DNA from: Bacteroidota bacterium | GTDB lineage: Bacteria > Bacteroidota > Bacteroidia > Chitinophagales > LD1 | Reading direction: 5' to 3' | DNA length: 64,000 nt | Assembly (NCBI GenBank): GCA_016715625.1 | Contig: JADJZU010000012.1 | Location: 20,287-84,286, forward strand | Part shown: positions 32,911 through 61,510 of the stretch, piece after piece | How the letters are laid out: every line of letters starts with the position of its first letter | Numbering within the stretch: position 1 is the stretch's first letter | The notes under the pieces: model-generated | What the model was told of the DNA's origin: nothing | The model's database searches: none | What the model saw: the letters and a program-made list of their open reading frames with translations, nothing else | Position numbers and translations under genes: made by a program

Positions 32911-32942
32911 AAAAGCCTGCAGTTCCTGCAGGCTTTTTTTTT
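32911..32942. terminator. bidirectional Rho-independent terminator between convergent gyrA and the OmpA-family gene
   Basis: aaaaaGCCTGCAG-ttc-CTGCAGGCttttttttt. The 8-bp stem is perfect (32915-32922 / 32926-32933) and is flanked by A and T runs. Confidence 0.85.
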
Positions 32943-33013
32943 CCTTCCCCTTAGCTTCAAAAAAAATGCCCCGCTTTGCAGCAGGGCATTCCAATGTAGA
33001 TATTAACTTATCC

Positions 33014-36331: not shown

Positions 36332-39300
36332 TTATCGGTGAATCACTACAAACTTAGCGTCCACATCTCCTGTTCCATCATTGTGATAATACAGGAAGTA
36401 GTAAGTGCCGTCTGGTAATGGAACCCCTTGCATGTTCTTACCTTCAAAATTGTTCTGGTAAGGACCTTCGCTGTTCCACACCTCTACGCCCCATCTGTTA
36501 TAAACTATCAGAGAAGCATCCGGGTATTCAGTGCCACATGGAATTTCAAAGGCATCGTTCACACCATCACCGTTTGGTGAGAATCCATTCGGCAGGAAGC
36601 ATTCCACAGAATCTTTTACAACCACACACACCACAGCAGTATCGCAGAAAGTATAGCTGCCTGTGGTTACACATACTTCGTAGCTGAACGAGATGTTTCC
36701 GGAGTAATCGGTAGCAGGTGTTACGGTGATAGTGTTATCACTGTTTACGACTGCAGTTGCATTATCCACCGGTTGCAATACAGCAACAGTGGTGTCGGCA
36801 CCGAACGGTAAATCATCGTTCTCTAACACACGCAGGGTGATTGGTGTGTTCTTGCTGGTAGAGTCAAACTCGCAAGGCTCATCCACTGCAATAATGGTAG
36901 GATCCAGCACCGTAATAATCACCGGAGTTGTATCACAGTTTCCGAACGTATCGCAAACAACCAAACAGAACGTATCGTTTCCAACGTAGTTCAATGCCGG
37001 TGTGTAAACGAAGCATGTATCGCCCGACAATACTTCCACTGTTCCGTTTTGCGGATTACAGAGCGAAGTAATGCTCCAAGGAGTACTGCTGGTTACCAAA
37101 CCATCGAGACAGATTGTATCCGGCACATTTACAAACGTGGTATCGAAGATAGTATCCACCTGTATTGGAGTGCAGGCGATAATATTTAACACCACGGTAT
37201 TGGTATCGCAGTAGCTTGGTATTCCATTATCACAAATGAAGTAGGTAAATGTTGCAGTGCCTGGCAATGCAAGCGATGTAAACTGCACCGATGTTGCATT
37301 CTGTGCAGTAATACCACCCAAAGTTCCCGGTTGCGCTACAGATGTTCCGGTAATGAATATCACGTTACTGTTGCTGTCTGTGTCATTTGCTAACAGCGAC
37401 AGCTCAGAGACGGTGTTCGTGCAAATAGTGAATGTATCTGCATTAGCTACCGGAGGAACGTTGCAGTAGGTTTCAATTACAACGATGGCTGTATCGAAGC
37501 CGCAACGGGTTTCTATAAAGTACTCAATGGTATCAAAACCACACCATCCGGCATCCGGAGTATAGAACAATGTTCGGGCGGTATCCAGTGTTGCTGTTCC
37601 ATGACTTGGTGCACCATTTTGCGTAAAGTCTACAGTCAATGATGGATCATTATCTGTTGTATCATTCGCTAGTATAACTACGGAAATTTGACTTTCCGGA
37701 ATAGTAACGGCAGCATCATTTACTGCCACAGGACGTGGACAGCAAATAACATCTACACATACAGTCACTGTATCGGTAGCTCCCTGCACATCTGTAATTA
37801 CATACTGGAATGAATCCACAAATCCGCAAGTATCCTGGTCCGGCACATAAGTGATGGTTCCATCATTGTTCAATGTTACCGCACCAATGGTAATTGGCAT
37901 TGGAATAACACTGGTCACACTGAAAGAATCTCCCTCCGGATCAAAATCGTTGCCTGCTACATCAAATGTTACCGGGTGTAAACTACCGGTGGTTGCACAC
38001 TCAGGAACACCCTGCACGGAATTGTTGATGTAAACAACGACTACTGCTGTATCGCACAATGTTGGGATTGCCACATCACAGATTACATAGCAGAAAGTAT
38101 CCGGCTGATTAGCATTTGCCAAAGGACCCGGAGTATAAATTACAGTTCCGCCAGGACCCTGAGTTGTGGTTCCGAATTGCGGAGGACAAGGCACGTTGAT
38201 AGGACCTACTACCAAGGTATTGCCATCCGGATCACTATCATTCTTAGTTAAATCGATTGTGATTGGTGTCAGATAATCCGTTGTAGTGAAATCATCGGTT
38301 GCCAATGGCGGATGATTGTTGTTCACCGTAGAGTCCACATAGATGGTGATGCAAGCGGTGTCGCATAAGCCATCCGGATCACAGATGCTGTAGCAAACAA
38401 CATCTACCCCTACCACAGGCGAATTGTAGTTAATAGTTCCATCCGGATTAAGCGTAGCGGTAGCTCCCGGCAAGGATGGACCACTAATAATGGTAACATT
38501 CAGCGGATCGCCATCCGGATCATTGTCGTTAGCCAACTCATTAATCACGATTGGAGTAGATACTGTGGTAACCACAGCATCATCATTAGCCACTGGAGGA
38601 TTGTTTAATGAATCACAAGTAACCACCACTACCACGATTAACTGTGTATCACACAATGAAAACTGTGGTATGTTGCTTGTGTCGCATACGGTGTAAGGAA
38701 TAGTATATACACCGGCTGTGTCTGCATTAAACACCACTGTTCCGTTTCCGGTAACCTGGAAGGCGTAATTAGCGCCAACCGGAGCACCAAATACAGGTCC
38801 ATAGTTGTAAGTAAGTAAATCGCCATCCGGATCACTGCAAGCAGCTCCTACGTTGATACCAATAGCGGTGTTTTCACACACTACCACATTTATCTTCTGT
38901 GCAATCGGAGCGTTATTTATTGGCAATACCACAATAGTGATAGTGCTGGTATCACAAGCGCCCGATGTATCACAAACCGATACACACAAAATCTGTGTTC
39001 CGGTCCAGCCCGGAGTAGGTATAAAGGTTACGCAGGTATCATTCTCTGACACTGTTCCATTTAATGGAGTACAAGAGAAGTAATCCATAGCGTAAGAATC
39101 TCCTGCATCCACATCGGTAACTACAGGGCATACAATCGATGTATCGTTTTCATAAATGGTATCTACCGGATTGTCAACAACAGGAGTGTCGTTGATTGGG
39201 CATATACTTATAAACACATCTGCCGTATCGCAAGCGTTCGAGCAATTGCTGTTGCAAACCTGGTAGGTAATGCTGGCTGTGCCGTTGTAATTTACAGTAG

Positions 39301-42300
39301 GCACAAATGTAATTACACCGCTATTCACTGAAGCTACTCCATTGGTAGCGGACAATACCGTCACAACACCACCATCTCCTTCTGGGTCTGTATCATTACC
39401 CAATACAGCAATCTGCACGGCTTCCTCTTCGCAGGTGTTCGCAGTATCCGCATTGGCCACCGGAGCCTGATTGATGTGAAGGCAGATAGTGTCACTTGTC
39501 TGACAGCCATTTGGTGTATTCACCGCTGTAGCCACCACACAGAAGTCCACCGCAGTAGGATCGATCGCTGAAGGATTGATAGAAATTGGACCAAAGCCGG
39601 ACGTAATCACTGCTCCGCCCAATCTTCTCCAAACGATGTTAAATACATCCAAACTATAGGTAGCACTTAAGGTAGTAGACTGTCCTGCACATACTGTATC
39701 TGCAGAAGCGGAAATAGTCAACAACGGGTTGTCTTTCACATTAATCACCACTGTGGCTGAATTTCCACAACCCGCAATAGAGTCGAAATAAGTGTAGGTA
39801 ATCGTGTTGTTGCCAACAAGGGCTAACAACGGATTAAACTCATTACCGTTCTGTATACCAGGCCCGCTGAACACACCACCTGCTGGTGTTCCTGTAAGTA
39901 TTTGCACATCACTGTTACTACATACACTTGGATTTTGACCGCTAATACTAACTACCGGCAGAGGATTAACCGTAATGCAAACTACTGTATCATCAATACA
40001 TCCGGTAGAAGGATCCTGGTAGGTGTAGCGAATACACCACAACCCTGGACCAGCTGAATTTGTCTGGAAAATATTTCCTGTTACAAATGGTCCGCTGAAA
40101 ATACCACCTGCTGGCACTCCGGTTAATGTAATGTTACCTGCATTTGCGCAGTAAGAAGTGTTTAAGCCACTAATACCTGCTACTGGCGGAGCATTCACCG
40201 TAACCACTGTAGTGTCGGAAGATGCGCAACCATTTGCATCCGTAACTAACAGCGTGTAGGCTGTTGTGGTATCCGGACAAGCTTGAGTGTTTAAGGTAGT
40301 TGGGCTTGTTAAAGGACCACCACTCCATAAGTAATTGAATGGAGCTACACCAGTTCCAGTTACAATACCATTCAAGTTCACACATCCACCCGAATTAGAA
40401 CATAATGAAGAGTTGGCCCCGGCATTTACAAAAATAGATGGCGGGTTGGCTGTCAAATTCATACAATCTGGTAATGATTGACATCCAAACGCATCTCTCA
40501 CAACTACACAGTATACCTGATTATTGCCCACGTTGGTCAACACAGGATTAGCATCTGTAATACTGTTAAGACCTGTTGGGTTATTCCACAGATATGTATA
40601 CGGCTGTTGCGTTCCGGAACCAGTTGGTGTGCCTCCTAAAACTGCACTGTCTGAAGAGCAGGCAAAGATAGTTGCATCCGGCCCTGCATCCGCAACCGGA
40701 CGGGCACGAAGCACAACATCAACAGCATCTGTAGCAGAACATCCCAGTGAATCGGTTACTGTTACGCTATAAGTAGTGTTAACCAACGGAGATACAGATG
40801 GATTAGCTGCAGAAGTTGGGAAAGCGCCTGCACTCCAATTGTAAGTAAGAGGACCTGTTCCGCCTGTGCCTGTTGGACTTCCACCTAAATTGATGGTAGA
40901 ACCGGTGCACAAGAATGAATCCAATCCTGCATTCACTGTAACCAATGGGCTTACAACCACATTCATAGAGTCAACCGCTACACAACCATTTGCATCGGTA
41001 ACTGTCAACATGTATTTAGTAGTTGAAAGCGGATTTGCACATGGGTTTGCAATTGTAGGATCACTTAATCCTCCAATTGGAGACCACTGATAAATGTATG
41101 GGAACTGACCTCCTTGAGCCGTAGGACTTCCACCCACCTGCACACATGAAGAACTGTTCAGACAGTATACTATATCGGCTCCGGCATCCACCACCAAAGT
41201 GGTAGGCACCACAGTAATTAGCACGCTATCTGTTCCAAAACATCCTGTAGTGTTATCCGTAACGGTAAGTGTAAAGACGGTAGACTGAGTCAAACCAGTC
41301 AAAATAGGGTTTGGAATAGTAAGACCGTTCAACACTTTAATGCCCCCTACGCTATCCGGAGACCAGGCATAGCTGTAATTTCCTGTTCCACCACTTCCGG
41401 AAGGAGAACCGCCCAGTGTATGGAATGAACCACCACATGATACTAGTGTAGTCGGATTTCCGGCATCGGCTATTACTCCCGGGTTCACCAGAATTTGCTG
41501 ACAAGCCGAAGACGAGCAACCTACTGCATCGGTAACGGTAACACAATAAACCGTAGACACACTAGGTGATGCCGCAGGGTTGGAAATATTTGGACTGGAA
41601 AGGAGTCCTACGGTTGGGTTCCAGCTATAGGTAAATGGAGCAGTTCCTCCATCTGCAGTGTTTGGCGTTCCACCTAAATTGGCTACTCCACCAGCGCAGA
41701 TGGCTGTATCTGGATTCATGATGGCTGTAACTGCTGGATTTGCATACAACACCATTGAGTCTATTGCTATACATCCCAACGCATCTTCCACTAACAATAC
41801 ATAAGTCGTAGTGTCAGTCGGATTCACCGTTGGATTTGGAACGTTATTAAAGTCACAGATACCGGCTACCGGACTCCAGTCAATGATATATGGACCGGTT
41901 CCTCCGCTTACGGCACTTGCTCCTCCAATGGATACACAACCTGACTGACCAGCACAAATACTCTTATCAGGTCCTGCATCTGCTGTCAAATCTGAAACAG
42001 ATACGTTAACTGCTGAGTTTGCAGAAGCAGTGCAACCGTTGACATCGGTTACTGTCAGTGAATAGGTGATGCTCTGTGAAAGATTACAAGCTGCCGGATT
42101 CGCAAGTCCGGTGTTGTTTAATCCAGCACCCGGAGCCCATGCATACAAGTATGGTGCTGTGCCACCCGTAGCTGTTGGAACTCCACCGATAATTACGCAA
42201 GCATCCGGACATGCAACCACGTTGAATGGTCCCCCTCCGTTTGCTGTAGGATTTTGATTGACCCTAATAGTCACGTTGGAAGAATTGCTACAGCCGAGAG

Positions 42301-45300
42301 AGTCAGTAGCCGTTACCTGCCATGTTAAAGTTCCGCTTGGCGTGGCAATTGGATTAGACACAGAAGGCGAACTTAAGAACAAAGTAGGGGTCCAGCTATA
42401 AGTATAAGTAGAACCGGTGCCGCCTGATGCAGTTGGTTGACCGCCTAAAGAAACGCTGGCACCAACACAAATAGTGTCAGATACTCCGGCACTTACAATC
42501 GGACGAGGGTTGATAGTAATTCTTACCGAGTCAAAAGCTGAGCATCCATTGGCATCAATTACATCCACATAGTATGTAGTAGAAGCAGCAGGGCTTACTG
42601 TCGGGTTTGGTGAACTACTAGTAAATCCGGATGGATTAGAAGACCACACGTAAGTATAAGGTGGGGTAGTGCCTTGTGCTGTTGGGCTACCACCTAAAGT
42701 GATGGATACAGCTGCACCCGCACAGAATGCTACATCATTGCCAGCCTCTGCCTGTAAAGTTGGATTATTTACCACAACAGTTACCTGGTCGTTGTCAAAA
42801 CAACCATTGGCGTCTGTGACAATCAGATTATAGTTAGTTGTAGAACCAATTCCTACCACCCATGGGTTTGCGATGGAGTCATCGTTCAAGCCTCCGGCAG
42901 GAACCCACGCATAAATATATGGCGCAGAACCACCGGTTGCGGTTGGAGAACCTCCGATTTGGACGCTATCCGATGAGCAAGCTGTGAGCGTTTGATCTAA
43001 TCCCGCATCCGCATTTGGGTTCTGATTCACCGTCACCAGTTTACTATCGGTGCCGGTGCATCCATTGGCATCAGTAACAGTAACTGTAAAGATGGTTGTA
43101 TTCGTTACACCCACTAATGGGTTTGTAGCGGTAGATCCATTAGACCACAAATAAGTGTATGGTGATGTTCCGCCAGTTGCTGTTTGTAAGCAACCGAGAT
43201 AAACTTTAGCACCGGAACAAATAGCTGTGTCAGATCCTGCACAAGCAACCGGTACAGGATTTACAGTAATCGTTACAGAGTCAATGGCCACACATCCTTT
43301 ACCATCTGTAACCGTTACAAAATACTTGGTAGTAGCAATCGGTGTAGCTACAGGGTTTGCAGAAGTGGCAGAACTCAAGGTGGCCGATGGCGACCATGCA
43401 TAAGTATAAGGAGCACTTCCGCCTTGTGCAGTTGGTGCACCTCCAATTGCTGCACTTGAGCTACCACCAGCACAAACTGCGCTGCCAGCACCCGCTTCTG
43501 CGGTCAAGGTACTTGGAGTAATTGTTACCAGGACAGCATCTTCGGCACGACATCCATTTACATCTGTTACCACTAAGGTATACAACTGTGAAGTAGTAAT
43601 GCCGGTTACAAATGGATTGCACAAGGTAGTGCTGTTTAATCCTGTAGCTGGTGACCATGTGCATGTTAATGCTCCTGTTCCACCACTGCTCGCAGGAGTG
43701 CCGCCTATGGTAACTGTATCACCAGAACAACTTACAAGACTCTTATCTGCTCCTGCATTTGCCACAGGAAGAGGACGAACTTCTACCAGCACTTGATCAG
43801 TAGATACACATCCGTTTGAATCTGTAACCTGTAATACGTAAGTGGTTGTTGTCAGCGGACATGCTATAGGATTTGGAATATTGTTCGCATTCAATCCGAT
43901 TGTCGGTGTCCATGAATATTCTAATGGTGAAGTTCCACCACTACCAGCAGGAGAACCACCAATTACAGCACACAGTCCCTGACAAAGGGCAGTGTCTGTA
44001 CCGGCATTCACTGATGGAGCGGCATTGACATTCACAAGAATAGAATCTACCGATGAACATCCCTTACTGTCTGTAACAGTAACATAATAAGTGGTAGATA
44101 CTAACGGTAGCACAGTTGGATTAGCCAGCGCACTGCTGAAGCCAGCCGGTGAAGAAGCCCAAGCAAAAGTGTATGGCGAAGTTCCGCCCACAGCTGTTGG
44201 CACACCGCCAATACTCACTTGAGACCCTGCACTTGCGCATATATTTGAATTGGTTCCTGCATCCGCTTGTAATGTGCTAGGTGTAACGTTTACAATTACA
44301 AAATCAACTCCCTGACAACCATAAATGTCCGTAGCCACCACCTGGTAAGATGTTGTTGCAGCTAAACCAGTCACAAATGGATTTTGAATGGTATCACTAC
44401 TCAATGCGATAGCAGGTGTCCAGTTGAAATTGTATGGACCAGTTCCGCTGCTCACATTTACCAGCATAAAGGCTGTATCAGCAGCACATGCTACAATGGA
44501 CTTATCGCTACCGGCATCCACCACTGGGGTAGGACGAGGAGTTACCACCACATCATCAAAACTGCTACAGCCCTTACTATCGGTTACTAACACTGTATAA
44601 GTGGTAGATACGATTGGTGCAGCAGCCGGATTAGCTACTACTGCCGAACTTAAACCTAACGTAGGTGTCCAGGCATATGTATATCCAGGAGTGCCTGATG
44701 TAGCAGTTGGTGAACCACCAATAGCAACTACGTTACCAGCACAAACGGTGGTATCAGGTCCTGCATTAGAAACAGGATTTGGATTAACCGTTACGGTTGC
44801 AGAACTGGAAGCCGTGCAACCATTTGCATCAGATACTATTACTACGTAGTTTGTAGTGGTAGTAGGATTGGCAACCGGATTAGATACCGTTGAATCGTTG
44901 AGCGATGTTCCATTATTCCAATCATATGCATATGGTGCTGTACCACCGGTGAGAGTTGGGAAGTTGCCCAACTGCACGGTGTTACCAAAACAGATTTGTC
45001 TGTTTAGACCCGCATTAGCTGTTAAATTGTTTGGTCTGACATTTACTGTAACGGCATCGGTAGCGCTGCATCCGTTTGCATCTGTTACCTGTAGCACGTA
45101 AGTTTGAGCAGTGGCAAGACCTTTGACTACAGGATTGGCTACCGATGTAGAGGTGACGATGCCGGTGGCTGGAGACCATGCATAACTATAAGGAGCAAGA
45201 CCACCTGTTGCTGCCGGAATATCACCAATAATTACACTGTCACCAGGACACAAATAAAGGTCTTTATCAACCCCTGCAAATGCAGTAGGATTAGGACGAA

Positions 45301-45481: not shown

Positions 45482-46060
45482 CTATCACTACCACCTGACC
45501 GTTACAGATAGTGGTATCTAAACCGGCATCGGTTGTCATAGGTTGGTTAACAAATACAGTAGCAGAATCTACTGATGTGCAACCAAGCTGATCTGTTACA
45601 GTAACAAAATACTTCGTAGTAGATGTTGGTTTAGCAGATGGGTTGGCCAGGTTGGTCAGATTCAAACCACTCAGCGGAGACCAAGTGTAGCTATACGGAG
45701 CATTGCCCCCCACAGCTGTTGGAATACCGCCCAACTGTATACTATCTCCATTACCACAGATTGCTCCACCGGCACCGGCTTCTGCAGTTAAGCTGCTTGG
45801 TGTGATGGTGATTGTTGCCTGATCACTGGAAGAACAGTTAAATGCGTCTGTTACCACTACAGTGTATGTGGTAGTAGATGGAAGATTACATGCTTGAGGA
45901 TTTGCTGTAGTAGTATCGCTAAGTCCGGTTGCCGGACTCCATGCATACGTCAGCGTGCCTTGACCACCGGTTCCGGTTGGAGAGCCCCCCAGCGTTACGC
46001 AACTTCCTGAACAAGAAACGGCATTCTGATCATTGCCGGCATTTGACACAACAGCAGGAC
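40200..46060 (-). repeat. about 23 tandem ~85-aa coding repeats spanning the fragment 2/3 junction
   Basis: The consensus is x-AG-x-D-xxx-C-x-G-…-(I/L)GG-x-PTA-x-GG-(T/S)-x-PY-x-Y-x-W-(S/T)-P-…-NP-…-TT-x-Y-x-(V/L)-x-VTD-x-x-GC-…-D-x-V-x-V. Counted by hand from the translations. Confidence 0.8.
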
Positions 46061-52000: not shown

Positions 52001-55000
52001 GGTCCTCCGGAGTGGTAAAAATATCGTTACCGGCAATAGGCGGAACGTTTACACAACGGTAATCAAGCACGACTACTCCGGTATCACAACGGTTTGGAGA
52101 ACCACCATCGCAGATAATATAAGCGAAGGAGTCCATACCGATAAAACCAGGAGTTGGAGTGTAAGTGAAATTACCCAAAGGCTGTAGAGCCGTTAATGTT
52201 CCGAAGAATGGACCAGCACCAAATACAGTTCCCTGCACAGTCACATTCGGACCGTCAATATCCGAATCATTAATCAATACATTTTTGGTCACGGCCGTAT
52301 CTACACAAGATACATAGTAATCATCCACAGCTACCGGTTTATCATTTACAGGTGTTACTGTAATACTGATTTTTGCCGTGTCGCACCCTTGAGGTGATCC
52401 GTTATCGCAAATCACAACACAGATAGAGTCACTGCCATTGAAATTTGCAGTAGGTTGGTAGGTGATGCAAACGGTGTGAGGGTTAGATAGATTATTAACG
52501 ATGCTGGAAGTAATGATACCATTATTGGGTCCGCAGAATACTTCAGATACAAAGTGCGTTTGAGTTGCACTCTCTGAATCAGTAATTGGCAAACATACCG
52601 TCAGTGGAACATCTTCCGGAGTAGTGACCGTAGTATCGCGAACTACTGGTGGATCGTTTACATCCTGCACGGTAATATAGGCTACTGCTGTATCGCATAG
52701 GGATGGTAGTGGAGTTCCGCTATCGCAAACTCGGTAAACAAATGAATCAACCCCGTTGAAATTGGTAGCCGGAGTATAGGTAAACGAGCCATTTGTGTTC
52801 AAGGTCAGTGTACCATTATTAGGGCCGGAAATCGGTGAGGTCGTTACTGTAAGTGAAGTAACAGGATTTCCATCAGCAGCATCGTTATCATTATTTCTAA
52901 CACCGGTTACAGCAGAAGTAGTGAGCGCAACATCTTCATTTGTAGTGTAGAAATCATTTACCGCTACCGGAGGATCGTTCACCGGAATTACGCTGATACT
53001 GATTTTTGCTGTATCGCATAGAACAGGAGAACCGTTATCGCAAATAATAACGCAGATAGAATCCGAGCCATTAAAATTCAGAGCCGGTGCATAAGTAACG
53101 CATACTACATGGGGGTTAGATGTATTGTTAACGGAAGTTCCGGTAATGGTCCCACTATTCGGTCCACAGTAGGTTCCAAACAATATGTGTGTTTGAGAAG
53201 CTGACTCCGGATCTGCAATTGGCAAGCAAACTGTAAATGGAACATCTTCAGGAGTCGATACAGTGGTATCGCTTACAACCGGTGGATCATTCGCTGGCGT
53301 TACGTTAATGGTTACGCAAGCAGTATCGCAGGCAGCAGGAATTTCGTTATCGCAAACTCGGTAACAGAAGTTATCTGTTCCGGTAAAATTCGAATTTGGA
53401 ATATAAGTAAACGATCCGTTTGCATTCAGCGTAAGTGAGCCATTGTTTGGTCCACTACCGCTTATTGTTCCTGTAACCGTTAGCGGTTGCTGTGGATTAG
53501 CCGGATCGTTGTCGTTGGCTAACACTCCTGGAGCTGGTATGGTTAATGTTACATCTTCGGGAGTAGTATAATTATCATCCACGGCTACTGGTGGACAAGA
53601 AGTTACAGAAACAGTAATGGATGCAGGAGCAGAGACGCAACCATTAACAGTGTCAGTTACTGTATACACACCACTCATGGCTGGTATAGCAAGCGCACGT
53701 GCAATGTTTTGTGTATTGGCTGTAAATCCGGATGGACCTGTCCATCCGTAAGTGGCACCCGGAATATTAGATGCAAATATTTTTAAAGTATCTCCATAGC
53801 AGCGCGGACTATTGCTGGTGAGTACAGGCGCTGGTGGATTTACCGGATCTGTTAAACTAACAGGCCCTCCGAAAATGCCCGAGGTACACCCTGACAGGGA
53901 AGCTGTAAAGTTGGAATAGTTACCAGCAGTAAGTCCGGTAAGGATTACCTGTCCACTGGCATTAGCTAACAAGGTTCTTGGTGTTTGAGGATTACCGTTC
54001 AAGCTAAAGTTAATAGTATAAGTCTGTCCGGCTATCAATCCGCTCAAGGTAACAGAACCTTGCGCTCCACCGCAGGTAGTTGGGTTACTGCCGGTTGCAG
54101 TCGTAATTGATGGCGTAACGTTCACTACAACAGTAACAGTAGCTGCTGGAGAGACACAACCAAAAACAGTTTGAGTCACAGAGTAAACACCCGCCATAGC
54201 AATACCCACATTAGTTCTCACAATTGGAGATCCGGTAGCGGTAGGACCATCGGGGAACTGCCAAGATAAATTGGAGCCGGTGGCTGATAGCGTCAAAGTT
54301 CCTCCTGTGCACACAGGGTTTGGAGTTGCTGTTACGTTTGTTGGAGCAGATGGATTTGAAGGGTCTGATAATATAACCGGTCCCGCGAATGGAGCCGAGC
54401 TGCAGCCATTTATTGAAACTGTAAAGTCAGCATAAGTTCCGGCATTAAGCCCCGTAATGGTCAATTGACCACTTCCGTTAGTTGAAAACGCAAATGGACC
54501 TTGTGGAACTGTATTGCGGGTGTAAGATACTTGATAAAGTGATGATGGAACTAATCCGCTCAATGTGATAGAACCACTTGATCCACCACAAGTTGTTGGA
54601 TCTGAACCAATAGCTGAAACAATAGATGGCGTTTGATTGATAGTTACATTAACTGTAGCTGGTGGCGACACACACAATGCAATGGTTTGTGTAACTGAAT
54701 AAACACCGGCCATTGCAGTCGTTACATTGTTTCTGGTTACCGGTGAGCCAGAGGCAGTAGGCCCGTCAGGATATGTCCAGGATAAATTGCTGCCTACAGC
54801 CGACAAAGTAAGTGTATTGCCTGAACAAATTGGATTTGGATTAGCTGTAACACCAGTTGGAGCTGATGGTATAGCCGGATCATTCAGCACAATTGGCCCT
54901 AATACCGGTGCAGAAGTACATCCGTTCAAGGTCAGTGTAATGCTGCTGTAACTAGCCTGGTTCAATCCGGTTATAATTAGATTTCCGGCCCCATTCGTTG

Positions 55001-58000
55001 AAATGTTAACCGGGCCTACAGATGAACCGTTTCTTAGATAAGATACTGCATAAACAGTATTCGGATTTAAAACACCGAGTGTGATAGTACCATTACTTCC
55101 ACCGCAGGTAGTTGGATTGGTACTGCTTGTGGTCGTAACGATTGGTGTTTCATTGACGGTTACCGTTACCGTAGCAGGAACAGAAGTACAACCCGCAACC
55201 GTTTGAGTTACGTTATAAACACCACCCATAGCAGTAGTTACCGGAGTTCTTACTACTGGAGAACCGGCAGCTGTTCCACCACCGTTAGGGAAAGTCCAAC
55301 TGAGGTTGGCACCCGTTGCAGTAAGCGTTAATGTACCTCCTGTGCATACCGGATTTGGTGAAGCAGCTACATTCGTAGGTGCTCCGGGGGTTGATGGATC
55401 TGTAAGTAATACCGGACCGGCAAAAGCTGCTGAAGGACACCCGTTTAAGCTTACAATAAAGTTGGTATAAGAACCTGCATTTAATCCCGATATAGTGATT
55501 TGTCCACTTCCGTTACTGGTCAGGTTAAATGGTCCTTGCGCAACTCCGTTGCGAGAATACAGCACATTGTAAGTTGTATTATTCGCAAGTCCGCTCAGTG
55601 TAATAGTGCCTTCAAAACCACCACAGGTAGTAGGACCGCTACCGGTTGCATTGGTGATTATTGGAGTAGGATTGACATTTAACGTTACGCAAGTTTGAGG
55701 AGATGTACATCCCAATACAGTTTGTGTCACACAATAAGAGCCGGCCATATTTGTGGCAGTAATATTTCTGGTAGGATCTTCGAGAGCACTCACAAAAGTT
55801 TGCGGACCAGTCCATGACCAAATAGCCCCTGCTTGCCCTGTAGCATTAAACTGTACCGTATTGCCAACACAGGCAGGATTTGGAGATACAGAAACTAGAG
55901 TAGGAGCTGCTGGTGTAGCCGGATCAGATAAAATTACCGGTCCTGCAAACGGTGCAGATGTGCAACCGGATACCGAAACGGTAATATTGGAATAGCTTCC
56001 TGCATTCAAATTTATAATGGTGAGCACACCACTGCCGTTTGTTGTTCTGCTTACAGGTGTTGCGGCAGATAAATTTCTTGAATAATTAACGGTATAGGTT
56101 GTGTTGGCGGCTAAGCCAGTAACTGTTATAAATCCGTTTGTTCCGGAGCAAGTGGTAGGGTCAGTGCCAACTGCGCTCGCTATAGATGGAGTAGTATTTA
56201 CGACAACAGAAACGGTGGCAGGTGAAGATGTACAGTTAGCTACCGTTTGGGTAACAGAATAAACACCGGCCATAGCCAAGGTCACATTCGCTCTGGTGAC
56301 AGGTGAGCCAGAAGCTCCACCACCATCAGGATAAGTCCAAACTAATCCGGTTCCTGTAGCACTCAAAGTCAGCGTATTACCGGTGCAAATAGGATTTGGA
56401 GATGCGGTCACATTAGTAGGTGCACCTGGGGTGCTTGGATCAGTCAAAACAATTGGACCGGCAAATGGTGCAGAGGTACATCCGCTTAATGAAACAGTGA
56501 TAGCGGCATAAGAACCGGCAGTTAATCCCGGAATTACCAACTGTCCACTTCCATTCGAAGTACCACTTCCACTTTGTGCAGTTCCGTTTCTGGTGTAGTT
56601 AAAAGAGTAACTGGTATTGTTTAGCAGACCGGTAATCGTAATAAACCCGTTACTACCACTACAGGTTGTTGGATTAGTACCAGTTGCTCCGGCAATGGAT
56701 GGAGTTGCGTTAACCACTAATGTGACACAAGCTTGTGGAGATACACAACCTGCCACTGTTTGAGTTACACAGTAAGAACCACCCATATTGGTTGCTGTTA
56801 TACTTCTGGTCGGATCCTCCAATGCACTTACAAAAGTTTGTGGGCCTGTCCATGACCAGGTTGCCCCCGCTTGACCGGTTGCATTAAACTGTACCGTGTT
56901 GCCGGTACAAATTGGATTGGGTGTAGCAGAAACGGCAGTTGGTGCGCTTGGAGCGGCTGGATCTACCAACAAAATAGGGCCTGCAAAAGGTAAAGAGGTA
57001 CATCCACTTGCAGTCACAGTTATGTTGGTGTAGTTACCGGCATTCAAATTGATAATCGTCAACACACCCGAAGCATTCGTAGTGCGACTCACTGGAGTAG
57101 CCGGTGTACCATTTCTGGAATAGTTTACCGTATAGGTTGTACTGGCAGCAAGACCACTTACCGTAATAAATCCTTCCGTACCGTTACAGGTAGTAGGACT
57201 GGTGCCCACTGCATTAAGAATACTTGGAGTTTGATTAACTGTTACTGATATTGTAGCAGCGCTGGAAGTACAATTATTAACCACCTGCACCACAGAATAC
57301 AAACCGGACATAGCGGTAGTAGCATTCAATCGGCTAACGGTGCAACCGCTATTGAAACAGCTATCCAAGAAACTGGCAGGACCCGACCATCTGAACTTAG
57401 CGGTAGCGTTACCGGAAGCTGAGAGATTTAAAGTTTGACCGGAGCAAAGCGGTGTATTGGCTGTCAAATTAGTTGGTGCAGCCGGGTTCGTTGGATCAGA
57501 TAAAACAACCGGTCCCGCAAACAAAGCTGAGTTACATCCATTTAAAGACACCATGAAGTTGGAATAGGACCCTGCATTTAAGCCGGTGATAACCAGTTGT
57601 CCCGCTCCATTTGTTGTGAACGTAGGTGCCGGAGGTGAAATAGGTGTTCCATTTCTGGAGTAAGTCACTGTATAAGTAGTGTTGGCAGAAAGTCCTCCTA
57701 AAGTGATGGTACCATTCACTCCACCACAGGTAGTAGGTCCTGCTCCTACGGCTGACCCAATAACAGGAAGTGGGTTAACTACCACGTTTATCGTAGCCGG
57801 ATTGGATTGACATCCGTTTACTGATTGAGTAACAGAGTAGGTACCAGCCATTGCCAATGTTACCGGAGAACGAACAATAGGTGAGTTAGGGGCCGTACCT
57901 CCACCGGGGAATGTCCAAGTCAAGTTACTGCCGGTTGCGGAAAGTGTCAAAGAGCCTCCCACACAAACAGGATTTGGTGATGCTGATATACTTCCCGGTG

Positions 58001-60320
58001 GTGGGGTAGATGGATCGATAAGTACCAGAGGTCCTACCAAAGTATCACCACACAGAGGATTTGTTGGGTGGAAAATCTGCATGGTGGTATAAGATCCCGC
58101 ATTCAGATTTGGAATCACCAATGTTCCGTTATTCTGTGTGGTCAAATTGAATGGGCCTTGTGCAGCCCCACCATTATAAGAGTAATAAACAGTATACGTC
58201 ACATTCGGCAACATATTGCTGTTCGCAATCGTAATGGAACCGTTTGGAGTAACACAGTTAGTTGGACTTTGAGTGGTTATGTTTGCACCTGTTAGATCGA
58301 CACAGTGATAAATGATGACCAAATGATCTTCCACCTCTCCACTGCTGGCATTAGCATTCGGTGATGGGTTAGCCACGTTAAACCCGGGATCAGATGTAAT
58401 ACGCAAACGAACATAGGTGGTATCATCGGCAGAGAAGTTTACCGAAAATCCACTCCAGTTAAAGGTAGCTGTTGTGGCTCCGTTTGCTAACCGTACGGTA
58501 TCCACCTCTGCATTATCAAAAGCCAGGTTTCCGTTAAAGTCAATCCAGGCCATAGCGGTGGTATTGGCACCGGTGGTATTGGTTACTGGTACTGAGAATG
58601 TATAGCTAGTGGCAGAATCGCGTAAGAGCAATTGTGTGCCCGGAATAGATTCTTCATCATCCGGTGTGGTTCCATTTGTATCATCACCATTTGCCCGATT
58701 AGAATAAAACGGAAAGTCTTCGCGGTCAATGTTCGCAGTCCCTAATTTCAAACTGTTGAAAATAACGTGGTTGGGGTTGCCATAAGCCAACGGAGCATCG
58801 CCATAGTCAAAGTTCAGGAGAATACCAATTCTCCATTTAAAAATCAAGTGCTTGTCGTCACTTCCGGTGGAGTTAGCAATGTCAAAAACACCGGCTGGCC
58901 CCAAAACGGTTGGTTCCAGGGTAGTGCTATGCGTAGTAGTTCCGAGACACACCAATGAGTCGCCCTCTACCACAAAGTGGTTACTACCGTGTGGTGTACC
59001 CGTTTGGCCCAAATAGTCATTCTGTCCACCACCCACATAAGTAGCATAGTAATGGGTGGTAAGGTCTGAACCTAACACAAACCAAAAGATATCCCAGGTT
59101 CCACCGTTATAAGTGTCATCATAGAAAGTACCACCATCCGATAAATTCTTAGTGGGGAAACTTCCGGTTCCTGAACCTGTTTCACCAAATACCATTAAGG
59201 CATAAGGAGTATAATTCCGCAGGGTGTTACCTCTGTCATTTCCGCTACCACCAAAGTATGTGGCAGCCCAAGGGTCAGTGGCACCTGTTCTTCCGGTTCT
59301 GGGTAATTTACCAATAAATCCATCCTGACTACCGTTATGTGTAATATCAAAACGGGTAGTTGCCGAAGCACCGGGTCCTAATGGGAATCCTGAACCAACA
59401 AAACCTGTTACAAATAGTGTATCGAATGCTCCTATAGATATTCCATAAAACTCATCATCATTAGTTCCACCAATTCTGCTTAACATACTAAAGGAGCCTC
59501 CGTTTGCTGGAATAACTCCAATTACACCATCCAAATCTCCATCTACCCCCGTTGATGCAGCATTTACTAAACCGGGGAATGTGGCAGTGGAGCTTACAGT
59601 AGAACCGGTAAATGCAATTGCACCATCCGAAAAAATGGTTAAGTCATTTAGTTGGTCATCTCCATTTCCCCCTACGTAGGTACCAAATGCCAACGTATTA
59701 AAAGAGGTAAACTTGGCAATGTACATCTCCTCACCATTGGAGTAAGTAGCATCGTAAGCACTGGTAATATAGTTAGGTGTAGTAGTTGGCAAGGCTGCGG
59801 TAACTGTTCCTCCTACCACAAAACTGTTGTTCGATAAACCCCGAATGGTCACCATTTCTTCACCTGTACCAGTTCCGGCACCACCAATGTAGGTAGCGTA
59901 CTGCAAAGTATTCATGGAAGAGGCATTAAATACAGCCACCCATCCATCATTACTAGTCCTGGTATTATCAAAAGCTGTAGCCAGCGTACCGTTTACAGGC
60001 ACATCTCCTGCGGTTGTTCCACAAGCATATAGTACGGAGTTATCGGGGGATAGTCCCAAACCATAGACCTCATCTGCACCTGTGCCTCCGTAGTAGGTAA
60101 TAGCCAAAATAGCTGTGCCGGCACTATTTAGTTTATAAATAATTCCATCTACAGCTCCCGCGTAGGAGTTGTCGTAACCGAACAAAGAAGCCGGGTTAAT
60201 ATAGTTACCGGCACCAGTGGTAATGGCCATATTCGTGGCACCACCGCAGAATACATTTCCCTGATTATCTACTTGTACTGGCAAATAGATATTCATCAAA
60301 ACTATCGTTTCCGTTATCAA
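45393..60320 (-). CDS. giant T9SS adhesin, fragment 2 of 3
   Basis: The track start is a TTG inside the overlap. There is no signal peptide and no CTD. Contents in order: SBBP-type beta-propeller repeats, a GEVED-like segment (SSGEVEDHLV), Ig-like di-domain units, ~22 cadherin/tandem-95-like domains, PKD-like domains, then ~85-aa repeats. Confidence 0.9.
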   Translation of the reverse strand: MITETIVLMNIYLPVQVDNQGNVFCGGATNMAITTGAGNYINPASLFGYDNSYAGAVDGIIYKLNSAGTAILAITYYGGTGADEVYGLGLSPDNSVLYACGTTAGDVPVNGTLATAFDNTRTSNDGWVAVFNASSMNTLQYATYIGGAGTGTGEEMVTIRGLSNNSFVVGGTVTAALPTTTPNYITSAYDATYSNGEEMYIAKFTSFNTLAFGTYVGGNGDDQLNDLTIFSDGAIAFTGSTVSSTATFPGLVNAASTGVDGDLDGVIGVIPANGGSFSMLSRIGGTNDDEFYGISIGAFDTLFVTGFVGSGFPLGPGASATTRFDITHNGSQDGFIGKLPRTGRTGATDPWAATYFGGSGNDRGNTLRNYTPYALMVFGETGSGTGSFPTKNLSDGGTFYDDTYNGGTWDIFWFVLGSDLTTHYYATYVGGGQNDYLGQTGTPHGSNHFVVEGDSLVCLGTTTHSTTLEPTVLGPAGVFDIANSTGSDDKHLIFKWRIGILLNFDYGDAPLAYGNPNHVIFNSLKLGTANIDREDFPFYSNRANGDDTNGTTPDDEESIPGTQLLLRDSATSYTFSVPVTNTTGANTTAMAWIDFNGNLAFDNAEVDTVRLANGATTATFNWSGFSVNFSADDTTYVRLRITSDPGFNVANPSPNANASSGEVEDHLVIIYHCVDLTGANITTQSPTNCVTPNGSITIANSNMLPNVTYTVYYSYNGGAAQGPFNLTTQNNGTLVIPNLNAGSYTTMQIFHPTNPLCGDTLVGPLVLIDPSTPPPGSISASPNPVCVGGSLTLSATGSNLTWTFPGGGTAPNSPIVRSPVTLAMAGTYSVTQSVNGCQSNPATINVVVNPLPVIGSAVGAGPTTCGGVNGTITLGGLSANTTYTVTYSRNGTPISPPAPTFTTNGAGQLVITGLNAGSYSNFMVSLNGCNSALFAGPVVLSDPTNPAAPTNLTANTPLCSGQTLNLSASGNATAKFRWSGPASFLDSCFNSGCTVSRLNATTAMSGLYSVVQVVNNCTSSAATISVTVNQTPSILNAVGTSPTTCNGTEGFITVSGLAASTTYTVNYSRNGTPATPVSRTTNASGVLTIINLNAGNYTNITVTASGCTSLPFAGPILLVDPAAPSAPTAVSATPNPICTGNTVQFNATGQAGATWSWTGPQTFVSALEDPTRSITATNMGGSYCVTQTVAGCVSPQACVTLVVNATPSIAGATGTNPTTCSGSNGFITITGLLNNTSYSFNYTRNGTAQSGSGTSNGSGQLVIPGLTAGSYAAITVSLSGCTSAPFAGPIVLTDPSTPGAPTNVTASPNPICTGNTLTLSATGTGLVWTYPDGGGASGSPVTRANVTLAMAGVYSVTQTVANCTSSPATVSVVVNTTPSIASAVGTDPTTCSGTNGFITVTGLAANTTYTVNYSRNLSAATPVSRTTNGSGVLTIINLNAGSYSNITVSVSGCTSAPFAGPVILSDPATPAAPTLVSVSPNPACVGNTVQFNATGQAGAIWSWTGPQTFVSALEDPTRNITATNMAGSYCVTQTVLGCTSPQTCVTLNVNPTPIITNATGSGPTTCGGFEGTITLSGLANNTTYNVLYSRNGVAQGPFNLTSNGSGQITISGLNAGSYTNFIVSLNGCPSAAFAGPVLLTDPSTPGAPTNVAASPNPVCTGGTLTLTATGANLSWTFPNGGGTAAGSPVVRTPVTTAMGGVYNVTQTVAGCTSVPATVTVTVNETPIVTTTSSTNPTTCGGSNGTITLGVLNPNTVYAVSYLRNGSSVGPVNISTNGAGNLIITGLNQASYSSITLTLNGCTSAPVLGPIVLNDPAIPSAPTGVTANPNPICSGNTLTLSAVGSNLSWTYPDGPTASGSPVTRNNVTTAMAGVYSVTQTIALCVSPPATVNVTINQTPSIVSAIGSDPTTCGGSSGSITLSGLVPSSLYQVSYTRNTVPQGPFAFSTNGSGQLTITGLNAGTYADFTVSINGCSSAPFAGPVILSDPSNPSAPTNVTATPNPVCTGGTLTLSATGSNLSWQFPDGPTATGSPIVRTNVGIAMAGVYSVTQTVFGCVSPAATVTVVVNVTPSITTATGSNPTTCGGAQGSVTLSGLIAGQTYTINFSLNGNPQTPRTLLANASGQVILTGLTAGNYSNFTASLSGCTSGIFGGPVSLTDPVNPPAPVLTSNSPRCYGDTLKIFASNIPGATYGWTGPSGFTANTQNIARALAIPAMSGVYTVTDTVNGCVSAPASITVSVTSCPPVAVDDNYTTPEDVTLTIPAPGVLANDNDPANPQQPLTVTGTISGSGPNNGSLTLNANGSFTYIPNSNFTGTDNFCYRVCDNEIPAACDTACVTINVTPANDPPVVSDTTVSTPEDVPFTVCLPIADPESASQTHILFGTYCGPNSGTITGTSVNNTSNPHVVCVTYAPALNFNGSDSICVIICDNGSPVLCDTAKISISVIPVNDPPVAVNDFYTTNEDVALTTSAVTGVRNNDNDAADGNPVTSLTVTTSPISGPNNGTLTLNTNGSFTYTPATNFNGVDSFVYRVCDSGTPLPSLCDTAVAYITVQDVNDPPVVRDTTVTTPEDVPLTVCLPITDSESATQTHFVSEVFCGPNNGIITSSIVNNLSNPHTVCITYQPTANFNGSDSICVVICDNGSPQGCDTAKISITVTPVNDKPVAVDDYYVSCVDTAVTKNVLINDSDIDGPNVTVQGTVFGAGPFFGTLTALQPLGNFTYTPTPGFIGMDSFAYIICDGGSPNRCDTGVVVLDYRCVNVPPIAGNDIFTTPEDQTLNATVSGNDSDPDGVVLNYNTTPLVNTTNGTLTLNSDGTFTYVPTTNYFGPDSFVYAVCDAGSPVKCDTATAYITVTPVNDKPFIPDTTITTSEDTAITVCIPITEIDLIDLHVAAVGCFPTNGALSALSVDNVSNPHAVCVTYTPGANFGGVDSFCLIVCDNGVPTKCDTGIVYVNVNPVNDPPVAQNDNYTTNEDQPLTIAAPGVLNNDNDVDGPTETSTIVTTTTNGTLTLNANGGFTYTPAPNFAGLDSFVYSDCDGGTPNLCDTATAYITVVPVNDPPVVPNATVTIPEDTTVVTICVPISDPENATQFHFTTSCGAPVLGTATNSVNNLSHVLCVSYTPNTNANGTDSLCLIVCDNGVPSLCDTTTITIVITPKNDPPVALNDNYTTSEDVVLTVPAATGVRANDNDAADGNPVSSLTVTATPLTGPANGTLTGGVIAGNGAFTYTPASNFSGLDSFVYVVCDNGTPLPSLCDTATAYITVTGVNDPPFIPDTTVTTCEDCPINICIPFTDADVTDVHAYAVLCNASNGTVSNVSINNITDLLCLTYTGNLNFNGSDSICVVVCDNGVPTRCDTTTIRITVTPVNDPPVAVNDNYSTIEDVAINIPVGTGVRANDNDAADNNPTSSLTITTTPLCGPVTGALTLNANGSFTYTPASGFSGIDSFCYVVCDAGTPLPSLCDTGVAYINIGSVNDPPVVTDTTVTTCEDCPITVCIPFTDEEASDVHSIAVLCNPLHGALSNVTVSDVTDQICFTYTGVTNYNGADSLCIVICDNGTPSRCDTTTIRINITPVNDPPIALNDNYSTQEDVALTVPVGTGVRANDNDNADGNPVSSLTVTATPLTGPSNGTLSGGVIAGNGSFTYTPGASFSGLDSFVYVVCDNGTPLPSLCDTATAYITVTGVNDPPFIPDTTVTTCEDCPITICIPFTDSDVTDLHSYAQLCNPVNGSVTSVTLSNITDQLCFTYTGVLNFNGADSLCFVICDNGIPSRCDTTTIRINVTPVNDPPVALNDNYTTNEDVTLNVPVGTGVRNNDNDNADGNPNSSLTVTTTPIINVSNGTLTLNSNGSFTYAPNVNFSGIDSFQYSVCDNGTPLPSLCDTATAYITVVGINDPPVVIDTPIVTCEDCGPITVCIPVLNPDAGQTVSVAAQYCGPNSGTANVSLVVNTLCVTYTSQANFNGLDSICLVVCDNGSPVLCDTTKITITVNPVNDPPIAVNDNYSTTEDVTLNVPVGTGVRANDNDNLDGNPVTSLTITPSVGCGPFNGSLTLNSNGSFTYVPNTGYFGLDSFCYSVCDNGTPLPSLCDTAVAYITINQVNDPPVVIDTPIVTCEDCPITVCTPFSDNDTIDIHTAVVLCNPTAGAVSNIQIVQGGVINQLCFTYTPFTNTFGADSMCIVVCDNGVPSLCDTLDVPITVTPVNDPPYIDTIYVVTFENQPIGVNVSAAAGDLEGDPLTFTYGAVTPGGGTYAVTGNGAIVVVPANGFTGVFTIPTQVCDNSPYLVNVLCDNAAVIVTVLPAGDTLVNHAPIANNDYVTTPMNNPVVINQLANDYDVDGDALAVTITGGPSHGSITLNANGSVNYTPFGGYYGFDTIYYTICDPTAVNNPKPLCDNAFIVISISRDPISIPNDPPVAVDDFAFICSDATTTLRLLLNDSDPNGDALTSVSIIDNVNNGTLTLGSLGVYLYDPNNGFNGFDTLIYRVCDNGAPSLCDTAVAVIQVFGNPVITPSVASAAICSGDSLNISFTSNIPGTVITWSATNGTSGIGNIAVSLLNVTSGPQNVTYNVVGVAPGGCGSTTVTIPVTINPEPVATFNANGTIFCSGENVVINITSNVISSTYSWSSSLGAGGTGSIISDNPVNNGTANITVTYSIVPLAAGCSGDTLSVAVVVKPKPVLTVNPATQTVCSGTPISIAIGTSIPGTTFNWTGSNSSSGNTSPINDSPVNPSAAPIVVTYNVNGSFNGCPANNVSATVTIRPAVVSNAGNDQNAVSCSGSCVTLGGSPTGTGGQGTLTYAWSPATGLSDTTTANPQACNLPSTTTYTVVVTDAFNCSSSDQATITITPSSLTAEAGAGGAICGNGDSIQLGGIPTAVGGNAPYSYTWSPLSGLNLTNLANPSAKPTSTTKYFVTVTDQLGCTSVDSATVFVNQPMTTDAGLDTTICNGQVVVIGGNPTATGGSGTYTLPVESIYILKYRNSS
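46830..53600 (-). repeat. about 22 ~100-aa cadherin/'tandem-95'-like domains in mostly alternating A/B order
   Basis: Type A: VNDPP(V/I)AxNDxYTTxED…NDND…NG(T/S)LTLNxNGSFTYTP…F(S/N)G.DSF.Y.VCD.G.P….LCDTA.AYITV. Type B: DTTVTTxEDxP.T.C.P…C.P.NG…C.TYT…NFNG.DS.C.V.CDNG.P..CDT. Some copies about 1.25 kb apart are roughly 85% identical at DNA level by eye (e.g. 49201-49380 vs 50455-50635). Confidence 0.8.
53600..58310 (-). repeat. nine ~172-aa Ig-like di-domain units
   Basis: Each unit reads …(S/T)(A/P)NP(V/I)C.G..L.L.ATG..L.W..P.G…GSPV.R..VT.AMAG(V/T)YSVTQTV.GC.S.PATV.V.VN.TP.I….G..PTTCGG..G.ITL.GL…..Y.V.Y.RNG…….NG.GQL.I.GLNAG.Y….V.L.GC.SA.FAGP(V/I).L.DP. Protein-level conservation is high, while the DNA copies I compared are clearly diverged. 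Confidence 0.8.
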
Positions 60321-61191
60321 AGAAAGTACCCCATTTTAAACTAGGGTCAATAACCAACGGATAGTTGTTATCAATATGGCTAAGCGCCTTGAAAGTTGCC
60401 AGGTCATTTTCTACTTCGAAGGCCATTTCTACCGGCACTTTCTTGCCATCTATAATCTGATAGGCTTCCGGAATATCCAGTTTCACTTCCTGAAAATGCA
60501 ATTTTACACTCAGGTTACCCTTCTCATCAATACGCAAACCATCATTCCCTTTAAAGCGCATTTTAATCTTATTGAAATCGGCACCGGCATTCACCATCCA
60601 GTCAAACTCCAGCAATTGCTTATCCTGGCTATAAATACGCAGGTCAATGCCTTCATATATATTGTTCAATTCAAACTCCCCGTATGTCTTTGCATCGCTG
60701 GCATGGAAGGATGGGTTAGAGCCTAAGAAGTAGTTGTGTTTGGTAACCAACTCATTTCGCTTGCTCACAGTAGCTTGCGGATTATAACCATCCAGCATAA
60801 TGGCCCAGCCATGCACTTCAAAAGTTTCGTGTTCTTCTTCTTCCTCTTCTTCTGCTTCCGCATGAGCCTCTCCGGGGGCCTGCGACAAGAAATACAGCAT
60901 GTCGCGTTTTACAACCATGCCCCCAATGTTGGAATGTCCAACACCGATAACATCTCCACCCCATTGGCCCTTATTTTCAATAAAGGAAATGGTATTGCGG
61001 CTTTCGCGAATCAACTCCTGCATTTGCTTTTTGGAGTAATCGGACGGTTTGCTGTTCTGTGCATAAAGTGTGCTAAAAGACAACACACAAAGTGTAAGCA
61101 TGCTAAAAGCACGGAGGAATAAGGAGTTAAAACTCATCATATTGGACTTTTTAGAAATCGAAACGGAGGGGGTAAAATTTCTCATAATCAA
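60265..61191 (-). CDS. giant T9SS adhesin, fragment 1 of 3 (N-terminal; signal peptide)
   Basis: The likely true start is Met18/19 (about 61140/61137): MMSFNSLFLRAFSMLTLCVLSFSTLYAQ. It contains an acidic run (AEAEEEEEEEHE). It ends …PLVIDPSLKWGTFFDNGNDSFDEYLF, which is the beginning of the first SBBP-type repeat. Confidence 0.85.
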   Translation of the reverse strand: MIMRNFTPSVSISKKSNMMSFNSLFLRAFSMLTLCVLSFSTLYAQNSKPSDYSKKQMQELIRESRNTISFIENKGQWGGDVIGVGHSNIGGMVVKRDMLYFLSQAPGEAHAEAEEEEEEEHETFEVHGWAIMLDGYNPQATVSKRNELVTKHNYFLGSNPSFHASDAKTYGEFELNNIYEGIDLRIYSQDKQLLEFDWMVNAGADFNKIKMRFKGNDGLRIDEKGNLSVKLHFQEVKLDIPEAYQIIDGKKVPVEMAFEVENDLATFKALSHIDNNYPLVIDPSLKWGTFFDNGNDSFDEYLFASTSR

Positions 61192-61510
61192 TGATTATTT
61201 AGACGCAAGGCGGAACAAACACCTCAAAGAAGTGCTGGTCTTTAAGAGACCTGAATAGTTATATAGATAGTTACAATTCATTCAAATAGTTAACCACGGC
61301 CAATCGGTCGTATTAACATTTATTTGCGCGAATATACTTTTGCATTTTTGATGTGTCAATAGGTCTGTGTGTTTTTCTGGTTAAATTATTGTTGACTGTC
61401 CTAAAATGTAGAGGTTTTGGCTCAAAATCAATGATTTATTAGCTTTTTAAGTGGTTTTGGCAGCCATTTTTTTTTCTGAAAATAGATTCCGGAGTTATGA
61501 CTTTTATCGT

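Follow-up and report, generated by a model that had tools for sequence, protein, structure and literature searches.

The window analysed here, 64,000 nucleotides of contig JADJZU010000012.1 in the metagenome-assembled genome of an uncultured Bacteroidota bacterium (MAG; assembly GCA_016715625.1), carries on its minus strand three consecutive open reading frames (ORFs) that very probably constitute one gene, encoding a giant adhesin of ~8,283 residues that is a type B substrate of a type IX secretion system (T9SS). Both breaks in its reading frame would then be spurious single bases, most likely arising from consensus or assembly error. A preliminary description, made from the window's sequence, had already read the ORFs as a single T9SS type B substrate gene of ~8,280 aa with two frameshifts, and this reading is now backed by a nearly identical sister MAG (GCA_016707905.1, contig JADJGT010000004.1) and by relatives from metagenomes. 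The gene and its two junctions are as follows.

36332..61185, minus strand: whole gene, probable ~8,283-aa T9SS type B substrate and giant repeat adhesin; ATG at 61185, stop codon at 36332-36334.
60279..60280, minus strand: junction 1, one extra base; window TTTGCCAGTAC, sister MAG TTTGC-AGTAC, Logan contig L165 TTTGCC-GTAC.
45439..45441, minus strand: junction 2, extra T in a T-run; window ACACTTTACCAG, sister MAG ACACTT-ACCAG.

The ORFs occupy 60265-61191 (fragment 1, 308 aa), 45393-60320 (fragment 2, 4,975 aa) and 36332-45481 (fragment 3, 3,049 aa), with overlaps of 56 nt between fragments 1 and 2 and of 89 nt between fragments 2 and 3. Fragments 2 and 3 begin at TTG/GTG pseudo-starts that are located in mid-domain, inside the overlaps with the preceding ORF; on re-checking, the coordinates, strand, lengths and start codons given in the preliminary description were matched exactly. 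Three-frame translation shows a domain continuing over each junction, and the earlier observation that a repeat or domain begun in one ORF is finished in the next thus holds at both sites. In the NCBI annotation, where the proteins of the window form the series MBK8658788-94, fragments 2 and 3 count as two proteins, MBK8658792 and MBK8658791, each a 'tandem-95 repeat protein'. Removal of one base per junction (~60280 and ~45439), a skip in the same direction at both, yields a seamless product of 8,285 residues if counted from the TTG codon and of 8,283 if counted from the ATG (61185), in which the stretches spanning the junctions read '...FDEYLFAVQVDNQGN...' and '...GGSGTYTYQWSPSTF...'. When the sister MAG alleles are put in at 45439 and 60280, a single open frame of 8,286 codons results. 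Downstream of the junctions, no stop interrupts the frames over their 15 kb and 9 kb, and there is therefore no sign of decay.

The sister MAG is 99.4–99.7% identical to the window at the DNA level, and its PorP and phosphoenolpyruvate carboxykinase (PEPCK) proteins are identical to those of the window. Its copy of the giant gene encodes products of 5,747 aa and 2,558 aa, the former spanning both junctions and lacking either extra base. The break between these two products is the sister MAG's own, a private extra C at a position corresponding to ~43974 of the window, where the window is intact.

At junction 1, the first frame ends '...FDNGNDSFDEYLFA' (in the three-frame translation, '...GNDSFDEYLFA') and the sequence is continued in a second frame as 'VQVDNQGNVFCGG'. 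The best database match to the repaired N-terminus is P0001, a protein from JGI contig Ga0558121_02738 with 91% amino acid and ~80% nucleotide identity, which reads 'FDEYLFAVQVDNQGNVFCGG' in a single frame and relative to which the window has one extra C. Logan contig L165 likewise encodes an uninterrupted N-terminus of 451 aa at this site; the remaining homologs, down to ~25% identity, are contiguous here, and the family consensus reads through. In an AlphaFold2 model of P0001 (pLDDT 82.7, pTM 0.80) the junction falls inside a beta-strand, residues 303-306, at the start of the all-beta region that follows residue 300. Comparison with L001 (the same JGI contig) gives non-synonymous differences per site (pN) of 0.04–0.06 and synonymous differences per site (pS) of 0.75–0.83 on either side of the junction, the latter saturated, so that dS upstream of it is inestimable; by these values, purifying selection is strong on both sides. 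The junction sequence itself, GCCAGTA, has the look of two synonymous variants in the population merged into one: GCAGTA, with the alanine codon GCA, and GCCGTA, with GCC.

Junction 2 lies within an array of ~85-aa repeats. The fragment 2 frame reads '...NPTATGGSGTYT' and is followed in the fragment 3 frame by 'YQWSPSTFLNTGTAANP...', in parallel with the preceding unit, '...GGNAPYSYTWSPLSGLNLTNLANP...'; the residues '...GGSGTYT' and 'YQWSPSTF...' together complete unit 3 of the array. A repeat profile built from the ~85-aa units with the junction-spanning one excluded gives 92.5 bits for the repaired unit (residues 5221-5301 of the merged protein; profile positions 2-84) and 79–110 bits for the other 22 units. 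The array thus comprises 23 regular units, with the break inside the third. In base-level alignment the window has ACACTTTACC where the sister MAG has ACACTT-ACC. Five JGI metagenome relatives of ~90% identity, reached through an exact-sequence cluster look-up, are gap-free over the junction, and each reads 'GGSGTYTYQWSPSTFL'. These are listed below with the part of the merged protein that they cover.

P0286, 7,171 aa: merged residues 1114-8285, crosses junction 2.
P0294, 6,549 aa: merged residues 489-7015, crosses junction 2.
P0284, 4,825 aa: merged residues 3464-8285, crosses junction 2.
P0285, 2,926 aa: merged residues 2588-5507, crosses junction 2.
P0287, 3,860 aa: merged residues 2583-6432, crosses junction 2.

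The 90% identity cluster of fragment 3 includes copies of the gene in other assemblies, cut into fragments of quite different sizes. Scans of GTDB genomes and JGI metagenomes with the junction 2 region gave only distant repeat-family matches (the best at 41% and 46%, respectively) and no ortholog, and a homologous-protein search with the same region gave no close match (best 51%).

Over an alignment of ~53 kb, 15 single-base indels separate the two assemblies, at a density of ~1 per 10 kb in the giant gene and ~1.2–1.5 per 10 kb in the rest of the window. Indels private to the window also break genes for an M43 peptidase with PKD domain, an AttH-polyprenyl synthase fusion, and an amino-acid permease. 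In the sister MAG, private indels disrupt the permease gene too, though at a different site, along with a metallo-beta-lactamase-fold gene and the giant gene. Since at least three unrelated genes are affected and the giant gene shows no excess of indels, its breaks are most likely consensus errors. The extra C at ~60280 and the extra T at ~45439-45441 (coding strand) would have entered when sequences of mixed strains were combined into a consensus, with error-prone long reads as their probable source.

Several points weigh against this interpretation. The extra bases stand in CC and TTT, with no long homopolymer, and so not in the most typical context of long-read error. The sequencing platform is a presumed one: by the style of its accession and locus tags, the source MAG may come from the Nanopore-plus-Illumina activated-sludge project PRJNA629478, and literature searches for the assembly and run accessions yielded no paper. 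L165, at 99.36% identity, belongs to a strain slightly apart from that of the window. The comparison is one between assemblies, which leaves a small chance that a frameshift is real and strain-specific. Moreover, secretion, anchoring, and adhesion are functions that we infer from domain families and gene order. The MAGs of PRJNA629478 are described as population bins rather than strains (PMC9765116).

The alternative that survives best is real and recent pseudogenisation, with two inactivating 1-nt insertions here and a third, independent one in the sister population; selection to lose a costly surface fibre, or one targeted by phages or predators, could provide the motive. It is favoured by the occurrence of three independent frame-breaking insertions in one gene of two near-identical assemblies, by the large mutational target that any giant gene presents, and by the location of the insertions in short runs, not long homopolymers. 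However, the permease, AttH-polyprenyl synthase, M43 peptidase, and metallo-beta-lactamase-fold genes are also broken, at equal or higher density, so the giant gene has not been specially hit; in addition, the downstream frames are open over their 15 kb and 9 kb, pN is much below pS in the sequences flanking junction 1, and that junction resembles a merge of two synonymous variants. We regard pseudogenisation as unlikely. Slightly less likely again is the specific proposal that co-existing activated-sludge strains have independently inactivated the 25-kb adhesin gene, at residues 304 and 5250 here and at ~5740 in the other population. If true, this would imply recurrent selection (for example by phage, predators, or floc dynamics) against the display of a giant PorE-anchored fibre.

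Joining of the ORFs by programmed +1 ribosomal frameshifting or transcriptional slippage would be consistent with the common direction of shift at both junctions and with the seamless repaired product, but the sites are unconserved: the sister MAG is in-frame at both, as are the five ~90% relatives at junction 2 and P0001 and L165 at junction 1, and inspection reveals no slippery heptamer, A-site stop or rare codon, or long homopolymer at either site. The listing of fragments 2 and 3 by NCBI as separate proteins would suit three genes with three products, but these two fragments have no signal peptide and start at non-ATG codons in mid-domain inside the overlaps, fragments 1 and 2 have no sorting domain, and the fragment boundaries are common to no relative. 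As the break points are not conserved, both of these explanations are effectively refuted, and we give neither any appreciable weight. Phase variation through long homopolymers was also considered, and rejected for the unconserved break points and the absence of a slippery or long-repeat context at them. The comparison reveals no relatives with three genes that have starts and sorting signals of their own; the break positions differ from one assembly to the next. A single gene interrupted by consensus errors is thus the interpretation that we adopt in describing the protein and its neighbours.

The repaired protein has the domains listed below, with positions in the merged protein given where helpful.

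61060..61185, minus strand: predicted Sec signal peptide of ~42 aa (MRNFT...LSFSTLYA/QNS), by inspection; hydropathy maximum 2.09 at residues 25-36.
60343..60984, minus strand: DUF7948 (Pfam PF25778, 186 bits, model positions 1-213/214).
58551..60278, minus strand: beta-propeller (merged ~305-880), assigned at fold level; SBBP-like by homolog annotation only.
58317..58550, minus strand: GEVED (PF20009, 38.4 bits, cut-off 24.4).
53400..58016, minus strand: ~177-aa Ig-like di-domains, 8 full and 1 partial (merged 1059-2597), from self-profile and MAGxY motifs.
46821..53624, minus strand: first cadherin-like/Big_9 (tandem-95-type) block, ~22 domains (Big_9, Cadherin_4, Cadherin_5).
46044..46808, minus strand: Ig_7 (CHU_C-associated Ig) and PKD_5, three stretches each (PKD_5 64.8 bits, Ig_7 41.1 bits).
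40181..46043, minus strand: 23 tandem ~85-aa repeats (merged 5050-7003), self-profile 79-110 bits; unit 3 contains junction 2.
36620..39472, minus strand: second cadherin-like/Big_9 block, ~10 domains (Big_9 10 stretches, Cadherin_5 7, Cadherin_4 7, in fragment 3).
36335..36595, minus strand: type B T9SS C-terminal sorting domain (CTD; PF13585 CHU_C, TIGR04131).

The gene start agrees with that of P0001, and the N-terminus resembles a signal peptide, with a basic n-region, a 12-aa hydrophobic core (KD 2.09), and the sequence 'LYA/Q'. The claim that only fragment 1 has a signal peptide is supported by inspection and this crude hydropathy score. The adjoining DUF7948 domain was not named in the preliminary description, whose list of N-terminal domains is to that extent incomplete. 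The same description placed an SBBP propeller next. A propeller fold is indicated by the model of P0001, for which the top Foldseek matches in the PDB are the CylK propeller (E ~1e-15) followed by WD40/DDB1-type propellers, and SBBP is the annotation of homologs, with PF06739 present in distant ones and P0004 named 'SBBP repeat-containing protein' by NCBI. Merged residues 305-877 gave no Pfam match to SBBP (PF06739) even at E<=10, and none was found with NCBIfam either; membership of the SBBP family is therefore not accepted, and we describe the region simply as a beta-propeller.

The remaining order of domains (GEVED, nine Ig-like di-domains, ~22 cadherin-like domains, PKD-like domains, ~23 85-aa repeats, and a second cadherin-like block) is as previously proposed and is borne out by Pfam and self-profile matches. 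Eight full Ig-like di-domains score 194–308 bits with the self-profile, nine MAGxY motifs are present, and a further partial di-domain is found upstream at merged residues 898-1061; the only Pfam matches to this region are weak ones to PKD and PKD_4. The first cadherin-like block has 22 Big_9 stretches (726 bits), 20 of Cadherin_4, and 12 of Cadherin_5. The 85-aa repeats match the K319L-like PKD, Ig_7, and SprB-repeat models (Pfam PF22352, PF19081, and PF13573), and the final 422 aa, in the second cadherin-like block, reach 66.5 bits with the tandem-95 model NF012211, under its 90-bit cut-off. The CTD is recognised by CHU_C (74 bits, cut-off 27, at merged residues 8199-8274 of 8285) and by TIGR04131 (39.1 bits, cut-off 35); neither fragment 1 nor fragment 2 has a match, and the CTD is confined to fragment 3 as originally stated. 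The suggestion that the protein is among the largest in bacteria was overstated, and 8,283 aa is big but not exceptional: proteins above 5,000 aa number >41,000 in UniProtKB, a count that takes in all life and is mostly eukaryotic (PMC11573180), and for bacteria lengths of up to 85,804 aa have been predicted (bioRxiv 10.1101/2023.11.21.568195).

Two genes follow the adhesin gene on the same strand.

35275..36249, minus strand: PorP/SprF-family outer-membrane protein, presumed cognate shuttle/anchor (PF11751 239.5 bits, TIGR03519 240 bits).
33014..35236, minus strand: PorE-like protein, presumed peptidoglycan anchor (740 aa; TPR, PD40 beta-propeller, CarboxypepD_reg, and OmpA_C).

The PorP/SprF-family gene begins 82 nt past the adhesin stop codon, and its TIGR03519 score compares with a cut-off of 90.55. 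Upstream of the adhesin gene is a divergent PEPCK gene, with no sprC or sprD. Pfam and NCBIfam matches agree with the report of PorP/SprF and OmpA-domain genes downstream, although the 'OmpA' gene, which does encode an OmpA domain, can be refined to a PorE-type architecture: its best NCBIfam matches are NF053607 CHU_0125_OmpA (503 bits, cut-off 620) and NF052230 T9SS_PorE (371 bits, cut-off 600). As both scores are under their cut-offs, we refer to the protein as PorE-like and not as a certified PorE equivalog.

A type B substrate depends on a cognate PorP/SprF-like protein, the product of a gene directly downstream, both for support of its secretion and for its anchoring in uncleaved form (PMC10202324, PMC9143113, PMC12618676). 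Operons that contain porE-like genes (Fjoh_3952/3951/3950 and PG1035/PorP/PorE) are proposed to form static, peptidoglycan-tethered complexes, and mobile substrates such as SprB are reported to have no link to porE-like genes (PMC9143113, PMC12618676). Of the SprB/SprF-like layout suggested for this locus, the PorP/SprF gene directly downstream is present, but next to it is a PorE-like gene, which is absent beside sprB-sprF; with this order of genes the locus fits the static-anchor class better than SprB/SprF. By analogy, a Sec signal peptide would bring the protein to the periplasm, the PorP/SprF-like protein would then keep it, uncleaved, at the outer membrane, and the PorE-like product would tie the complex to peptidoglycan. 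The outcome would be a static and very long fibre of ~70 Ig/cadherin/PKD-like modules with a DUF7948/beta-propeller/GEVED head, for which the repeat content leads us to infer a role as an adhesin.

Other parts of the window also differ between the two assemblies. A gene encoding an M43 peptidase with PKD and Por_Secre_tail domains (type A T9SS), at 710-2859 on the plus strand, is broken up as two ORFs, 710-1594 and 1591-2859; at ~1563 it lacks a base that the sister MAG has, and with this base restored the frame grows from 442 to 717 codons. At 8881-11128 on the minus strand, a fusion of AttH/CrtC-lipocalin, Lipocalin_9, and polyprenyl synthetase domains is divided into 244 aa and 520 aa in the window, and the sister MAG has it as one ORF of 749 aa; bases are missing at 10399 and 10405, and repair takes the frame from 532 to 774 codons. 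To find an AttH-like lipocalin fused to a polyprenyl synthase is unusual in itself. The amino-acid permease gene (13428-14722, minus strand) has indels at 13476, 13888, and 14360 (GGGG versus GGGGG), with repair from 392 to 446 codons, and in the sister MAG, where it is broken at another site, no gene is called; breakage at separate sites points to private indel errors in both assemblies. The metallo-beta-lactamase-fold gene (20486-21187, minus strand) is whole in the window and broken in the sister MAG by an extra base at 20886. An indel at 21378, near the start of a Tricorn-like gene (1,033–1,142 aa), has an ambiguous effect (1,149 versus 1,159 open codons). In the intergenic homopolymers at 32931-32990 and 61460-61476 (A8/A9, T8-T9) run length differs between the assemblies, a classic homopolymer length uncertainty.

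One larger difference is a segment of ~1 kb at 18924-19873, in the gene at 17502-19844 (minus strand), which encodes the N-terminal third of a hydrolase/PKD_6 protein of 792 aa. The segment has ~50–59% protein identity to the sister MAG, and the flanking DNA is ~99–100% identical; by this pattern it is a cassette that varies between strains or has recombined. An in-frame stop also stands in the window copy of the gene, at 19374-19376. Exact-protein look-ups with window ORFs 11998-13356 and 17502-19223 returned no match, probably because their start codons are unlike those of the called genes.

Fragmentation of the giant gene is also seen elsewhere. In L001 (12000-13320), it is cut into ORFs of 683, 199, and 204 aa by indels near residue 669, one of them an extra A in an A-run, and other JGI contigs break the gene at other places; these varied positions indicate that it is widely fragmented in metagenome assemblies.

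If the repair is right, the annotation splits a single T9SS substrate of 8,283 aa into three 'proteins', of which two have no signal peptide and two no sorting domain, and gene catalogues, pseudogene counts, and surveys of giant proteins drawn from this or similar population-bin MAGs would mislead. The repaired gene would instead be that of a well-conserved giant adhesin, with ~90% amino acid identity across several metagenomes and under strong purifying selection. It would be a very large addition to the class defined by a type B substrate with PorP-like and PorE-like partners, and it leaves unchanged the anchoring model of that class, which is still under test.

Among known systems, the locus shares with the Fjoh_3952/3951/3950 type the order of a type B CTD substrate, a PorP/SprF-family gene, and a gene for a protein with TPR, beta-propeller, CarboxypepD_reg, and OmpA_C domains. 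It differs in a passenger that here has ~8,283 aa and another domain composition, and in a PorE-like score under the NCBIfam cut-offs; the likeness to the F. johnsoniae and P. gingivalis trios is one of gene order and architecture, without established orthology. With SprB of Flavobacterium johnsoniae it has in common a very large, repetitive surface protein, a type B CTD, an adjoining PorP/SprF-family gene, and SprB repeats (PF13573, 52.7 bits, cut-off 28) in the 85-aa array, a repeat common to many non-SprB proteins. SprB is not known to have a DUF7948/propeller/GEVED head or cadherin-like blocks. The operon composition sprC-sprD-sprB-sprF, as given by PMC10202324 and PMC9143113, differs from the present locus, which has a PorE-like gene and is without sprC and sprD upstream.

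The combination of domains as a whole is probably undescribed, although each module and the three-gene layout are already known. The closest counterparts of the N-terminal part are Bacteroidota T9SS proteins with DUF7948 and an SBBP beta-propeller (sometimes with GEVED), which are typically ~1,000–1,500 aa with a type A or type B CTD. The N-terminal ~960 aa here have 30–59% identity to many such proteins over 90–100% of their length, and every one of these is contiguous at the position of junction 1. Most of these relatives are ~700–1,500 aa and often end in a type A CTD (PF18962), whereas here the shared region is followed by ~7,300 aa of Ig/cadherin/PKD-like repeats and a type B CTD.

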